Sequence record: DRR378314_581
Length of the DNA: 41,211 nucleotides
Reading direction: 5' to 3' (one strand)
Shown: positions 12,125 to 41,185 of the stretch, piece by piece
How positions within the stretch are numbered: the first letter of the stretch is position 1
How the letters are laid out: each line of letters starts with the position of its first letter
The notes under the pieces: generated by a model
What the model was told of the DNA's origin: nothing
Database searches by the model: none
The model's input: the letters and a program-made list of their open reading frames with translations, nothing else
Made by a program: the position numbers and the translations under genes

Positions 12125-14233
12125 TCAGTCCAGCAAAATGTTGAGTATTTCCGTGGCAGCATCTGCAATTTTGGTACCGGGGCCGAAAACCGAGATGGCT
12201 CCGTTGTCCAATAAATGTTTGTAATCTTGCTTCGGAATTACGCCTCCAACGATGACCATAATGTCTTCCCGACCGTATTTTTTCAATTCCTGTACCACTT
12301 CTGGAACCAAGGTTTTATGCCCACCAGCTAGGGAGGAAATACCTAAAATATGGACGTCGTTTTCCACAGCTTGCTTTGCGACTTCGGCCGGTGTTTGGAA
12401 CAAAGGCCCAATATCTACATCAAAACCTAGGTCGGCATAACCAGTGGCTACTACTTTGGCACCACGGTCGTGTCCATCCTGACCCATTTTGGCGACCATA
12501 ATACGAGGTCTACGCCCTTCTTGCTCTGCAAACTTGTCCGCCAATTTGCGGGCATTTTCAAAGCTCTCGTCGTTTTTGATTTCTTTGGAATACACTCCGG
12601 TAAAGGATTGAATTTTTGCTCTATATCGTCCAAAGGCACTTTCCATGGCATCACTGATTTCACCAAGGGTAGCACGCTTTTTGGCCGCTTCTACTGCTAA
12701 AGCTAACAAATTTCCACGGTCAGAGTTATTTTCCATAGCTTTTTTGGAAGTAACTCGGATGTCTTCAAGTACTTTTTCCACAGCTTTGGAATCCCTAGTG
12801 CTTCGGATTTCGTCAAGGCGAGCCATTTGTTGCTTGCGAACCTTGGCATTGTCCACTTCCAGAATCTGAAGGTCGTCCTCGTTCTCCAGCCTATATTTGT
12901 TTACTCCAACGATAATATCCTGGCCACTATCTATGCGGGCTTGTTTCTTGGCAGCCGCTTCTTCAATGCGCATTTTTGGGATGCCTTTTTCAATGGCCTT
13001 GGTCATTCCGCCCAATTTTTCTACCTCTTGAATCAATTCCCAAGCATTTTCAGCAATTTCATGGGTCAATTGTTCCACTTGATGACTTCCTGCCCACGGG
13101 TCTACTGTTTTTGTAATATAGGTTTCCTTTTGCAGATAGATTTGTGTGTTCCGCGCAATTCGTGCCGAGAAATCAGTAGGCAAGGCTATGGCTTCGTCCA
13201 AAGCGTTGGTGTGAAGACTTTGCGTGCCTCCAAATACTGCCGCCATAGCCTCAATGGTAGTTCTGGCCACATTGTTGAAAGGGTCTTGTTCCGTCAAGCT
13301 CCATCCGCTGGTTTGGCTGTGGGTACGGAGCATCGATGATTTTGGGTTGGATGGATTGAATTGATCTACCAATTTGGCCCATAGCATTCTTCCCGCACGC
13401 ATTTTTGCAATCTCCGCAAAATGGTTCATTCCAATCCCCCAGAAAAATGAAAGTCTTGGCGCAAATTCATCAATTTTAAGCCCTGCTTTTATTCCAGTTC
13501 GGATGTACTCAATGCCATCGGCCAACGTATAGGCCAATTCCATGGATGCAGGGGCTCCTGCTTCGTGCATATGGTATCCAGAAATACTGATGCTGTTAAA
13601 GCGCGGCATATTTTTACTGGTGAACTCAAAAATGTCCGCAACAATTTGCATGGACGGAGTGGGAGGGTAGATATAGGTGTTCCGCACCATAAATTCCTTC
13701 AAAATATCGTTTTGAATGGTTCCTGAAAGTTGGTCCATGGAAACACCCTGTTCAAGACCTGCCACAATATAAAAGGCCATGATTGGAATTACGGCACCGT
13801 TCATGGTCATGGAAACGGACATTTTGTCCAAAGGAATACCATTGAACAGGATTTTCATGTCCTCAACGGAATCTATAGCAACTCCTGCCTTGCCCACATC
13901 CCCGACTACGCGGTCGTTGTCCGAGTCGTAACCACGGTGGGTGGGGAGGTCAAATGCTACGGAAAGCCCTTTCTGTCCCGCTTCCAAGTTTCGTCGGTAA
14001 AACGCATTGCTTTCCTCAGCAGTGGAAAAACCTGCGTATTGACGTATGGTCCAAGGCCTGCTAACGTACATGGTGGAGTAGGGGCCACGAAGAAATGGGG
14101 AAATACCCGCGGCAAAGTTGGCGTGGCTATAGTTATGAGTTATGGGTTTTGAGTTATGAGTTTCATTCAACTCTGAACTCTGAACTCCTAACTTTGAACT
14201 TAATTCCAAATGTTGAAGGTCTTTTCTACTCAT
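12125..14233 (-). CDS. scpA: Methylmalonyl-CoA mutase, catalytic B12-binding subunit
   Basis: [28 protein letters not shown], cobalamin motif [10 protein letters not shown]. Confidence 0.96.
14131..14203. repeat. Two inversely oriented heptamer tandem arrays inside the scpA 5' end
   Basis: AGTTATG AGTTATG GGTTTTG AGTTATG AGTT / TCATTC spacer / AACTCTG AACTCTG AACTCCT AACTTTG AACTTAA. Confidence 0.85.
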
Positions 14234-15611
14234 CGTTCAATCTTTTTTGTTCGGATGCTTCGGCCAATCTTTTTTCGATTATCGGCTCAATGATTGTTTT
14301 CCGCGCTTTGGTTTTTACAAAGGGGTAGAGTTCCAGATTATCCTTCATCCTATCTTGTGGATTCTGATATTTGTTGGTTCCTAGTGAAACTATCTTGCCT
14401 TCATCAAAAAGTTGTTGTTCCTTTTCAGCGCTTTCCTTTATTTTTCGTTGAACCATCCCTTTTTTTAAACTGTCCAGAAAACCCCCTGCTTTTTCAATCT
14501 GCTTAAAAAGCACCAAGGCTTTTTCCGCGAGTTGATTTGTGAGTGATTCAATATAATAAGTGCCATTAGCAAATTGTGAAGCTTCGATAAAGTAGCCTTC
14601 TTCTTTTAAAAGCAATAGTTGATTGCGTGCAATACGCTCACCAAATTCGTTGTCTTTATGGTAAATGGCATCGTAAGCCAAATTGCAAACGGTGTCTGCT
14701 CCACCCAAAACTGCCGACATACATTCGGAGGTGGTGCGGAGCATATTCACATTATAGTCGTACAGTGTTTTGTTTCGTTTTGAGGGCACGGCCAAAATTG
14801 TACAATTACTTTTGATTCCATATTCCGCTGCCAGACTTTTCCATAACCATCGCAGCGCTTTGATTTTGGCTATTTCAAAGAAATAGTTGCTTCCCACGGC
14901 TACTTTAAAGGCGATGGGAAAAGACTTCTCGACTGCGCTCGAAGTGATAAGATGGTTGAGATATTCATTGGCATGCGCCAAACCATAGGCCAATTGTTGC
15001 ACCATATTGGCTCCTGAATTTTGATAAAGGGACAGGTCAACTCCAATAATTGATATGTCCAAAGTGCCCAATGAAACCAATTCGGTCAATATCTCATGGT
15101 CCTTTTTCAAATCATGGTACCAGTTGCCATCTTTTGCCAAGTGACCAATAATGTCAATATTCAAATGGGCTTTTGCTTTTTTGTCTTTGAGAAGGGATAC
15201 CAATTTTTTGATGGGTTCCAAGGCCAAAAACTCAAAATCGAAGTAGAGTTCCAGTCCTTCCAGATTGATACCCTCGAACAATGCTTCAAAATCGGTTTCC
15301 TCATTCGGAATGGTGAAAATCAAGCTTTCTGCGCCTTTTTCCAAGATTTCGAAGGCTTTCGCATTGGCTTTTTGAGTATCACCGACATAAATGGATTGAC
15401 CTACCGACCAATTGTGGTCTTTGGGCAAGGAATAAGTTGGAATGTTCTTTAGGTCTTCTTGATGGTAAAAGGGTTTAACATTGATGCCTTCCAAAGATTC
15501 CCAAACCAAGGTTTCGTTGTAATCGGCACCTTTGAGGTCCATTTGAATTTTTTGTTTCCATTGTTTAGCGGAAACTTCAGGAAACTCTTGAAATAGGTTG
15601 GTATTATTCAT
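14226..15611 (-). CDS. mutA: Methylmalonyl-CoA mutase small (non-catalytic) subunit
   Basis: [48 protein letters not shown]; overlaps the scpA start. Confidence 0.9.
14925..14949 (-). repeat. REP-like palindrome inside the mutA coding sequence
   Basis: CTTCTCGACTGCGCTCGAAGTGATA; 14927-14942 is identical (16/16) to 20878-20893. Confidence 0.8.
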
Positions 15612-20422: not shown

Positions 20423-20449
20423 TGTCATTCTGAGCGCAGCGAAGAATCT
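20423..20449 (+). repeat. REP-like palindrome, variant copy
   Basis: TGTCATTCTGAGCGCAGCGAAGAATCT: TGTCA tag, ATTCT/AGAAT stem, GAGCGCAG core; a truncated head TGTCAGTTCGA lies at 20390-20400. Confidence 0.7.
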
Positions 20450-20486
20450 GTGCAAAGGTTGAATAGTTAAATGGTAAAGTGTTTGA

Positions 20487-20536: not shown

Positions 20537-20562
20537 ATGTCAGGTCGAGCGCAGTCGAGACC
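20537..20562 (+). repeat. REP-like palindrome, left arm of a perfect 26-bp inverted repeat
   Basis: ATGTCAGGTCGAGCGCAGTCGAGACC; exact reverse complement of 20876-20901. Confidence 0.92.
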
Positions 20563-20866
20563 TCAATCTTGGTTTGGATTAAACTTATGGTGTGAAGCAT
20601 TTCTGCACTCCGATAATATTTGCAACAGGTCCATATCGCCCGCAGCAAGAGCAAACTTCTTTTTGGCGCTCCATTTCTTTATTCTCTTTTCAAAACTGAT
20701 GGCTTGCAAAACATCATTGAATTCTTATTGAAAGATAAGCTGAACAGGTCTTCTTCGATAGGTGAAAGCCATTTTGTTCGTTCCGTTTTGATGTTCGGCG
20801 AACCTACGGTCCATATTATCTGTAATTCCCGTGTAGGTTAATCCGTCAGTGCATTTATAGTTTCAT
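20563..20866 (-). pseudogene. GIY-YIG nuclease (UPF0213/YhbQ-like) pseudogene
   Basis: Manual translation: MKL / frameshift / KCTDGLTYTGITDNMDRRFAEHQNGTNKMAFTYRRRPVQLIFQ*EFNDVLQAISFEKRIKKWSAKKKFALAAGDMDLLQILSECRNASHHKFNPNQD*. Shows YTG.T, RR..EH, T...RP and A...E..IK hallmarks. The first (YVYIL-type) strand is lost with a frameshift, and there is an in-frame TAA at 20725-20727. Confidence 0.88.
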
Positions 20867-20875
20867 GATTTGGTG

Positions 20876-20901
20876 GGTCTCGACTGCGCTCGACCTGACA
20901 T
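20876..20901 (-). repeat. REP-like palindrome, right arm of the 26-bp inverted repeat
   Basis: GGTCTCGACTGCGCTCGACCTGACAT. Confidence 0.92.
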
Positions 20902-20927
20902 CAAACGTAGCAAAGTATATTAAAATG

Positions 20928-20977
20928 GGTCTCGACTTTAGTTTATCCTGAGCGTGGCCGAAGGACTCGACCTGACA
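20928..20977 (-). repeat. REP copy interrupted by a nested 28-bp related palindrome
   Basis: GGTCTCGACT-[TTAGTTTATCCTGAGCGTGGCCGAAGGA]-CTCGACCTGACA versus the empty form GGTCTCGACT-GCG-CTCGACCTGACA. Confidence 0.85.
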
Positions 20978-40849: not shown

Positions 40850-40943
40850 GATACTTACCAGTGTCCAGAAAATTAAAATTCAGAACTCTTGATGATACAT
40901 TAAAAGTTTTATCGGCTCTAGGTTAAAATCTCATCAAAATTTA

Positions 40944-40951
40944 TATTTTTG
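40944..40951 (+). promoter_or_regulatory. -7 promoter element for the tRNA locus
   Basis: TATTTTTG 11 nt before the tRNA-derived fragment at 40963. Confidence 0.55.
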
Positions 40952-40962
40952 CAGTCCAATTT

Positions 40963-41008
40963 CGGGATGTGGCCCTTCGGCTACGCTCGGGATTGACTCC
41001 GTCTGGTA
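40963..41008 (+). pseudogene. 5' fragment of tRNA-Pro interrupted by a REP-like insertion
   Basis: CGGGATGTGGC-[27 nt]-GTCTGGTA versus intact CGGGATGTGGC-GCA-GTCTGGTA (41086-41107); upstream ATTT is also shared. Confidence 0.8.
40973..41000 (+). repeat. 28-bp REP-like unit
   Basis: CCCTTCGGCTACGCTCGGGATTGACTCC; 21/28 ungapped identity to the reverse complement of 20938-20965. Confidence 0.8.
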
Positions 41009-41085
41009 CCCAGACTGCTTGGCAGTAAGGCGGAATTGAAATTTGGGTATTGTTTTTTTGGATTTTGTCAGCATTTTGCTGATTT

Positions 41086-41159
41086 CGGGATGTGGCGCAG
41101 TCTGGTAGCGTACGCGCATGGGGTGCGCGTGGTCGCTGGTTCGAATCCAGTCATCCCGA
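41086..41159 (+). tRNA. tRNA-Pro (anticodon GGG)
   Basis: Acceptor stem CGGGATG/CATCCCG, D-arm, anticodon arm CGCGC-ATGGGGT-GCGCG, T-arm GGTTCGAATCC; CCA not encoded. Confidence 0.96.
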
Positions 41160-41185
41160 CTTACGTTATTTAAGTAAAATCAAAG

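Follow-up and report, generated by a model that had tools for sequence, protein, structure and literature searches.

Is a hairpin unit of 27-28 nt, found once in the tip of another hairpin and once in a piece of tRNA sequence, a mobile element? The question is raised by a stretch of 41,211 nt from record DRR378314_581 (hereafter the window; coordinates count from its first letter). The original prediction for this DNA described a 28-bp unit inserted twice at one motif, in a REP (repetitive extragenic palindrome) and in a tRNA fragment, by a sequence-specific cut-and-replace mechanism possibly driven by a neighbouring GIY-YIG gene. Our analysis indicates that the "REP" and the "insert" are one family of short hairpin repeats. 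Insertion of a head-less unit of this family into hairpin loops is the best reading of the two sites, although it is not proven, and we consider its chances to be evenly balanced. In kind, the system looks like one that is already known, namely Ssn-type GIY-YIG nucleases with their TGTC/CGTC hairpin repeats.

Site 1 reads GGGTCTCGACT[TTAGTTTATCCTGAGCGTGGCCGAAGGA]CTCGACCTGACA on the plus strand, the bracketed part being the insert (positions of all features are listed in Table 1). Its empty form, GGGTCTCGACT-GCG-CTCGACCTGACA, occurs 51 nt upstream and once more in inverted orientation, and 12 + 12 flanking bases are identical between site 1 and the empty copy. Site 2 (40959-41008) is ATTTCGGGATGTGG(C)[CCTTCGGCTACGCTCGGGATTGACTCC]GTCTGGTA, which is readable as ATTTCGGGATGTGGC-[CCTTCGGCTACGCTCGGGATTGACTCC]-GTCTGGTA. 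The corresponding empty form, ATTTCGGGATGTGGC-GCA-GTCTGGTA, belongs to an intact tRNA-Pro(GGG) gene. Both empty sequences are thus present in the window as predicted, but they are paralogous copies and not alleles.

The two inserts agree at 21/28 positions, and pattern CCTTCGRCYACGCTCRGGAT fits both with 0 mismatches. The pattern has 2 matches in the window versus 0.01 expected from shuffles, and 0/100 window shuffles gave two matches. Chance similarity of the inserts is ruled out by these shuffles, by exact flank identity of site 1 and its empty copy, and by association of an AAAC tail with GAG[CT] (see below). The claim that one unit is present at two sites was correct, as were the statements that the junction is identical at both and that each insert carries the REP-type core in inverse orientation. 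Extent of the replacement had to be revised from 3-4 nt. The C at 40973 is ambiguous, and the change is most cleanly described as GCA giving way to 27 nt at site 2, and GC(A) to 27-28 nt at site 1. Neither junction shows a target duplication; three target bases are lost instead. On a larger scale, however, the tRNA 5' segment itself is duplicated (26 nt, copies 123 nt apart). Absence of duplication at both junctions sets the unit apart from miniature inverted-repeat transposable elements and classical insertion sequences, which combine terminal inverted repeats with a short target-site duplication.

Repeats of the family consist of a (T/C)GTC head, a covarying stem of 4-5 bp, the core GA-GC-GNA-GC-(Y)-GA, the other stem strand and a following C. 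A scan of the window for the core revealed six related elements, all of them GAGCG-YRG-(Y)CGA between short complementary flanks. Their stems are ATTCT/AGAAT, GGTC/GACC (two empty copies), TCCT/AGGA and CCC/GGG (two inserts), and CTTC/GAAG; free-standing members in the window are preceded by TGTCA. One reading of the core is a stack of tandem G.A pairs and two G-C pairs, capped by a GNA triloop. Mini-hairpins of the d(GCGNAGC) type (G.A/GNA) are unusually stable.

Existence of the hairpin is supported by covariation of the flanks and not by computed stability. DNA folding of the free-standing ATTCT copy gives the stem, GA/GA, GC/GC and the GCA triloop at merely -1.9 kcal/mol, and nearest-neighbour DNA folds of empty, filled and free-standing copies (-1.6 to -3.8 kcal/mol) are no more stable than shuffles. 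Covariation was assessed in 44 further distinct copies from other genomes, chosen by the core alone. Flanking positions 1-5 pair in 43, 40, 39, 39 and 26 of the 44 copies. When the partner strand is slid by +1 or +2, pairing at positions 3-4 drops to 16 and 5, or to 14 and 7, copies. At least 10 different stem sequences occur in this sample.

Distribution of the unit outside the window was examined by one exact-match scan of genome contigs with the 20-mer CCTTCGGCYACGCTCRGGAT, which yielded at least 120 loci (461 kb in total). With the two copies of the window there are 124, and 122 of them have enough flank to use. Labels of the listed loci comprise Bacteroidota, Acidobacteriota, Gamma- and Deltaproteobacteria, Cyanobacteria, Patescibacteria, Chloroflexota, Planctomycetota, Verrucomicrobia, Nitrospirae, Firmicutes and others. 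Free-standing copies with their own head account for 45/122; in antisense they read GAT-[20-mer]-GAC(A/G), that is TGTC/CGTC-ATCCT-GAGCGTAGCCGA-AGGAT-C. Another 31/122 carry an AAAC tail instead of GACR. The sequence GAG[CT] lies directly to the left of 17/31 AAAC-tailed copies versus 5/91 other copies (Fisher p = 1.4e-8).

This association goes with nesting. Thirteen strict cases (12 of them AAAC-tailed) and four loose ones were found in which the copy lies within a hairpin of its own family. A case counts as strict if GAG(C/T) precedes the copy, (N)G(T)CGA(A/G) lies no more than a few bases beyond its right end, and the stem that comes next is the complement of the left flank. The host is a family hairpin short of its GNA apex alone: GAGC-GNA-G(T)CGAAG becomes GAGC-CCTTCGGCTACGCTCAGGATAAACT(CC/GC/AAA)-G(T)CGAAG. 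The nested sub-lineage is head-less and 27-28 nt long, CCTTCGGCYACGCTCRGGAT-AAACT-NN or, in sense orientation, NNA-GTTT-ATCCT-GAGCGTRGCCGA-AGG; it is without the GTC head and without part of the stem. Typically, it sits at the tip of another hairpin rather than free-standing. A check suggested with the original prediction, namely rejoining the flanks of genomic copies after removal of the insert, gave the expected picture in the AAAC-tailed sub-class, but most 20-mer copies are not inserts.

Nested copies are found in at least 10 different outer stems, with one junction, GAGC-unit-G(T)CGAAG. Their hosts belong to Flavobacteriaceae (window, L037, L111, L115), Cyanobacteria (L043, L073, L074, L102), Gamma- and Deltaproteobacteria (L002, L039), Chloroflexota (L114; L044 loosely), Nitrospirae (L071), Binatia (L077) and Planctomycetota (L106, loosely). 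Since the GTC head of the host lies on the same side in 10/13 strict nested copies, the inner unit is inverted relative to its host in a fixed way.

Two further arrangements of the 20-mer were observed. Short tandem arrays often lie just 3' of free-standing copies (L013, L025, L051, L065, L069, L096, L107); they repeat the last part of the hairpin together with the head (units containing CTCAGGATGAC), so that half-repeats look reiterated. In other loci the 20-mer stands at the centre of longer palindromes, CCCCCT...AGGGGG in L035, L050, L062, L080 and L092 (Chitinophagaceae/Ferruginibacter); the palindrome of L059 measures 13 bp and that of L067 9 bp. Hairpins whose outer arms differ widely thus share the core as their tip. 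In a general test for complementary flanks, copies without the AAAC tail give a clearer result than those with it (17% vs 4% have a helix of >=6 bp), and several of them lie in longer palindromes.

tRNA sequences form the second group of hosts. An Allomuricauda metagenome-assembled genome (MAG; L023) repeats site 2 base for base, save two changes in the unit. In Sinomicrobium (L056) and Allomuricauda (L038), an identical copy of the final 18-21 nt of tRNA-Asn stands next to the intact gene, and in L056 it includes 3' flank as well. Here the unit replaces the T-loop GAA, so that in antisense GGGCTC-GAA-CCAAGG becomes GGGCTC-unit-CCAA.... The idea that tRNA arms are hit as look-alikes of the repeat, proposed originally for D-arms, thus finds support in another, independent case. 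The three target types have C-GNA-(G/C) in common, located in or at the hairpin loop in repeat hosts and in the T arm. The target motif given originally, GCGCAGTC, fits less well than C-GNA-G at a hairpin apex. In the 461 kb of listed loci, 7/12 tRNA genes are no more than 200 nt away from a unit, against an expectation of about 15% (binomial p = 6e-4).

Duplicated tRNA ends beside these repeats recur in distant phyla. In a Candidatus Peribacteria MAG (L090, 103-350), two 3'-end fragments of tRNA-Lys, consisting of T stem, acceptor strand and CCA, lie downstream of a tRNA-Lys gene, both with a family hairpin where the T loop belongs. In a Terriglobales MAG (L089, 1-190), the first ~25 nt of tRNA-Gln are copied upstream of the gene and are followed by a hairpin repeat. 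Interpretation of the tRNA-Pro fragment as an integrase attachment site is ruled out: it is the 5' end that is duplicated, the copies are 123 nt apart, and neither an integrase nor an island is adjacent.

The same pattern might be produced without any insertion mechanism. The composite would then be a long-loop variant that arose rarely and spreads whole, or by short-patch conversion via its GAGC...CGAAG core, and the tRNA cases would result from illegitimate recombination at GCGCAGTC or GCTCGAA-like microhomology. Two loci, L071 and L039, each hold two nested copies of one outer type within 6 kb, those of L071 having similar flanks beyond the hairpin as well; composites can therefore be copied whole. 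Orthologous filled copies in related genomes (L036/L084, L010/L120, L043/L098, L038/L056, window/L023) argue that composites are stably inherited, and Ssn tolerates loop extensions, so a composite would still be a working site (PMC11893778). On the other hand, a unit of 25-27 nt with the same ends is seen again in hosts of many phyla with at least 10 outer stems, as well as in the D arm of one tRNA, the T loop of another and the unrelated 9-bp palindrome of L067, whereas the conserved arms open to conversion measure just 4-6 nt. Moreover, in both tRNA cases the unit is flanked by tRNA-derived bases on either side (14-21 nt and 4-8 nt), which is unexpected for a simple chimeric junction. We regard spread of a long-loop variant as rather unlikely.

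Site 2 calls for another explanation to be weighed, as its surroundings are conserved. The block 40929-41020 spans a TAnnTTTG box, the 5' fragment of tRNA-Pro, the unit and a hairpin of 6 bp. It agrees with L023 in 88/92 positions, vs 78% identity in adjoining coding DNA, 56% in the spacer to the tRNA and 37% in the upstream intergenic region. The box matches the -7 promoter element of Bacteroidetes, whose consensus we take to be TAnnTTTG; it is the only one in the region, and the intact tRNA has none immediately in front of it. Selection seems to act on the block, which may be promoter and leader of tRNA-Pro. Site 2 could accordingly have a function as leader in the transcript of tRNA-Pro, a selected element at the RNA or DNA level whose look of an insertion is historical at most. 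Conservation and position of the box speak for this. Against it, only tRNA-Pro reaches the gathering score when the whole window is compared with Rfam 15, and nothing overlaps the repeats at either site at E up to 10; in stability, the fold of this region does not exceed those of shuffled sequences (z = -1.2 and -0.6). A leader would also leave site 1 and the nested copies in other phyla unexplained, and it concerns present role rather than origin. As a substitute for insertion this explanation is improbable.

Which enzyme could move the unit? The empty hairpins beside site 1 form a perfect 26-nt inverted repeat, its arms 100% complementary and 313 nt apart, that abuts both ends of a gene whose sole significant domain is PF01541 (GIY-YIG). 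The gene is a pseudogene: the N-terminal GIY strand is gone, codon 46 of the read-through is an in-frame TAA, and a stop precedes the first conserved residues. The flanking repeats are still fully complementary despite this decay, and a close relative (P0002, 97% identical) has the same N-terminal loss. The 120 relatives listed come from Flagellimonas/Allomuricauda and other Flavobacteriaceae, bear the name "GIY-YIG nuclease family proteins" and mostly have 105-106 aa. Long extensions are predicted in 26/120 of them, and in 25/26 the extension is a translated hairpin (MSGRAQSRP..., MFGVRSSAVET..., ...WGLDCARPD). As these extensions read the hairpin as protein, the gene is bracketed by hairpins in relatives too. 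Nearest solved structures are the UPF0213 proteins 1zg2 (E = 3e-10) and 1ywl (E = 7e-9). A GIY-YIG gene lies near the 20-mer in just 4 of the 120 loci listed (L027, L109, L087, L010); the repeat thus far outnumbers the gene and their link is not local.

Such a link has been published. Chenal et al. (2025) described Ssn, small GIY-YIG proteins (cd10448) flanked by hairpin repeats that are named NTS in Neisseria, where the architecture is NTS-ssnA-NTS, and SRM in general; statistics tie such hairpins to ssnA (PMC11893778). According to the same paper, Ssn binds the repeats as single-stranded DNA only and cuts 3 nt upstream of the repeat, the hairpin loop is dispensable and may be extended, and the GTC head is needed for cleavage in Neisseria (PMC11893778). 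The link to the GIY-YIG gene, which the original prediction named as a possible driver, is real and was already known as the association of Ssn and SRM; the copy in the window is a pseudogene. No support was found for the proposed cut-and-replace reaction, and the one characterised activity of the Ssn family cleaves single-stranded DNA outside the loop, 3 nt upstream of the hairpin.

The repeats could instead be moved by a tyrosine (HUH) transposase of the RAYT or IS200-IS605 kind, or by another transposase, with the GIY-YIG gene as a bystander. Single-strand transposition typically leads to insertion beside or within hairpins, with no target duplication. Further, GTAG REPs are tied to RAYTs, and use of RAYTs by CGTC repeats has been left open (PMC3733652). 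No transposase domain is found in the 30 main open reading frames of the window, that is in 41 kb of a genome the rest of which could hold a RAYT. It is the GIY-YIG gene that the repeats bracket, here and in 25/26 relatives with extended predictions, and the published statistics point to ssnA as well. We consider a transposase as the mover highly improbable.

Loop-targeted insertion, our preferred reading, would proceed as follows. The 27-28-nt unit would be, or have been, a tiny non-autonomous mobile element that enters exposed loops of hairpins extruded from single-stranded DNA. It would replace exactly three bases (C-GNA-G) and end up in inverse orientation to the hairpin that receives it. 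Usually it would enter other family repeats and occasionally the tRNA-Pro D arm or the tRNA-Asn T loop, and insertions into tRNA would survive only where a duplicated, intact tRNA accompanies them. The enzyme would probably be supplied in trans, an Ssn-type GIY-YIG nuclease together with host repair or ligation being the candidate. Once formed, composites would also be inherited vertically and copied as whole units. On its head side the unit ends 3 nt upstream of GTTT, the equivalent of the head (sense NNA-GTTT-ATCCT). SsnA cuts at this position relative to its hairpin, a detail that would fit participation of an Ssn-type nuclease.

Several observations weigh against this scheme. GIY-YIG enzymes are hydrolytic and are not known to join strands. 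No orthologous site was found in the listed loci that is empty in one genome and filled in another, and we infer mobility from the pattern alone. The scan needed an exact 20-mer, so constancy of the inner unit is partly built in. Among AAAC-tailed copies, 14/31 are not preceded by GAGY, and a helix of >=5 bp in their flanks has a frequency of 0.23 vs 0.13 in re-paired controls, a weak excess. Fold z-scores of the repeats range from -0.2 to +1.5 vs shuffles (nearest-neighbour DNA folding). The tRNA-Pro and tRNA-Asn insertions are one event each, common to relatives, which leaves just two independent tRNA cases; site 2 is old and conserved, and this fits selection on function as well as insertion. 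The paired composites of L071 and L039 belong here too. The local GIY-YIG gene is dead, and the unit is without the GTC head that cleavage in Neisseria needs, while known Ssn cleavage lies upstream of the hairpin and not at its apex (PMC11893778). Finally, the published SRM pattern HGTCWYN(0-2)YYVSBRHN(0-5)WNVSBRGN(0-2)RNCYNB has no match in the window and none in the 122 copies.

We tentatively propose, as a possibility that falls short of probable, that a head-less 27-nt unit mobilised in trans by Ssn-type nucleases enters C-GNA-G loops in fixed orientation, replacing three bases; hits in tRNA D and T arms would be off-target and would leave duplicated tRNA ends, one of which may now be a conserved tRNA-Pro leader.

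Table 1. Hairpin repeats, nested units and associated genes of the window
Feature	Position	Strand	Remarks
Family-like hairpin CTTC-GAGCGCAGTCGA-GAAG	14925..14944	-	in frame within methylmalonyl-CoA mutase beta-subunit gene; peptide TSSAVEKS
Free-standing hairpin, ATTCT/AGAAT type	20423..20450	+	TGTC-ATTCT-GA-GC-GCA-GC-GA-AGAAT-CTG
Hairpin, GGTC/GACC type, empty form	20537..20562	+	left arm of perfect 26-nt inverted repeat around GIY-YIG gene
Decayed single-domain GIY-YIG (Ssn-like) gene	20563..20862	-	Pfam PF01541, E = 2.6e-12
Hairpin, GGTC type, empty form	20876..20901	-	right arm of inverted repeat; empty counterpart of site 1
Composite (site 1)	20927..20977	-	outer GGTC-type hairpin, apex (GC/GCA) replaced by inner unit; 12 + 12 nt identical to empty copy
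Inner 28-nt unit (site 1)	20938..20965	sense on +	TTA-GTTT-ATCCT-GAGCGTGGCCGA-AGGA; head-less family member, inverted relative to host hairpin
TATTTTTG, matching Bacteroidetes -7 box TAnnTTTG	40944..40951	+	11 nt upstream of tRNA-like fragment; sole TAnnTTTG in 40851-41100
Duplicated tRNA-Pro 5' piece (ATTTCGGGATGTGGC)	40959..40973	+	left of unit
Inner 27-nt unit (site 2)	40974..41000	+ (antisense on +: CCTTCGGCTACGCTCGGGATTGACTCC)	replaces GCA of tRNA D-arm sequence; same place in L023
GTCTGGTA (tRNA sequence, 8 nt more), leading into hairpin GTCTGG-TAC-CCAGAC	41001..41015	+	fold shows helix; bases identical in L023
Intact tRNA-Pro(GGG)	41086..41160	+	D arm GGC-GCA-GTC at 41093-41102 is the empty form of site 2

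One member of the family in the window lies in coding sequence. The CTTC/GAAG hairpin is situated inside open reading frame 14226-15611, where it falls in a variable loop of the beta subunit of methylmalonyl-CoA mutase. Most of 120 listed Flagellimonas/Allomuricauda orthologs equal the window protein in length and carry its peptide or a similar one; a few are without the hairpin peptide or have a longer variant containing ERSRS. A recent insertion is ruled out by this equal length and mostly identical peptide, and since the orthologs keep both, the hairpin is an old intragenic copy. With site 1 as query, blastn found no plasmid or phage sequence at E up to 0.01, but a query of 59 nt has little power.

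Recurrence of the unit at one exact position in repeats and tRNA arms gives a possible mobile unit defined ends, a target (C-GNA-G at a hairpin tip) and an orientation. If loops are indeed entered by an Ssn-mobilised unit, it would be among the smallest site-specific mobile DNAs known and would provide the first sequence-level evidence that Ssn-related repeats move, and how. If nesting is mere copying of composites, it is an ordinary feature of a known repeat family. The SRM pattern misses a large, phylum-spanning branch, including repeats beside Ssn-type genes of Flavobacteriaceae, so that current counts are too low; published repeat counts are probably underestimates for Bacteroidota and other phyla with the GA-mismatch type.

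How does this family compare with known systems? It shares with REPINs and RAYTs short multicopy hairpin repeats and a single associated nuclease gene flanked by repeats. It differs by a TGTC/CGTC head in place of GTAG, by a GIY-YIG nuclease in place of an HUH/Y1 enzyme, and by a single 27-nt hairpin inside another hairpin in place of a two-REP REPIN. The small dispersed repeats (SDRs) of cyanobacteria, described by Elhai et al. 2008, are reportedly units of 21-27 nt that appear inserted into one another or into conserved sequences without target duplication. Overlap with them is possible, as seven nested copies lie in Cyanobacteria (L043, L072, L073, L074, L095, L098, L102). Full-text literature was searched for 15-17-nt strings of the repeat, for GIY-YIG together with REP, Bacteroidetes, tRNA or mobile elements, for later work on Ssn, and for nested insertion in hairpin loops; nothing relevant beyond the Ssn paper was found. 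Two features appear to be undescribed in the literature searched: a head-less sub-lineage nested at the GNA apex and in tRNA arms across many phyla, with which the elements of Elhai et al. may overlap, and escape of this branch from the published SRM pattern.

Di Nocera et al. (2013) described CGTC/TGTC-tagged REPs, including those of Bacteroidetes, as being "without a dedicated transposase" (PMC3733652). Likeness to them, as far as their text description goes, extends to a terminal CGTC that is often TGTC, AT as the first two stem pairs, Bacteroidetes among the phyla, no known dedicated transposase, some intragenic copies and some families within longer palindromes (PMC3733652). The tag and first A-T pairs are found in free-standing copies, (C/T)GTC-ATCCT...AGGAT, and in the TGTC-ATTCT copy at 20423; in GGTC-type copies TGTCA is present and the AT pairs are absent. 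Set against the stems of 8-9 bp, loops of 4-5 nt and short CCA-like tail that the text gives for CGTC REPs (PMC3733652), the repeats studied here have 4-5 Watson-Crick pairs, GA/AG and GC/GC, a 3-nt apex and a C(T/C)N tail, and they reach 8-9 stacked positions only if G.A pairs are counted. The available text passages of that paper contain no description of a repeat nested in the apex of another repeat of the same family.

In the case of Ssn, the words "nested" and "tRNA" are absent from the main text of the 2025 paper, whose supplements were checked for taxon names only; on how the repeats multiply, its authors note only a resemblance to insertion sequences (PMC11893778). Supplementary Data 4 lists a cd10448 homolog with a CDD score >100 in Flagellimonas lutaonensis, F. 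olearia, Allomuricauda ruestringensis and Muricauda lutisoli, and the same table gives ~1-fold SRM enrichment for Flagellimonas/Allomuricauda (PMC11893778). In the 461 kb of listed loci the SRM pattern has 4 matches vs 1-4 in shuffles. The present branch is thus uncounted, as the pattern misses it though the table lists these homologs, at ~1-fold enrichment. Judged by the available parts of the paper, the family nevertheless looks like the Ssn/SRM system. In both, a single-domain GIY-YIG gene is bracketed by inverted hairpin repeats, intact relatives of the window gene having 105-106 aa and Ssn ~90-110 aa. The repeats themselves share a (C/T)GTC head, a stem whose most common type opens with AT, an apex resembling G-N-A and a C next to the palindrome. 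Their loop is dispensable, and copies are dispersed in their hundreds over a wide phyletic range. Unlike SRMs, the repeats described here have a tandem G.A/A.G mismatch in the stem and often a bulged pyrimidine. This is best seen when NTS, CGTC-AT-TCCCGC-GMAV-GCGGGA-AT-C, is set beside the repeat of the window, TGTC-AT-TCTGAGC-GCA-GCGAAGA-AT-C.

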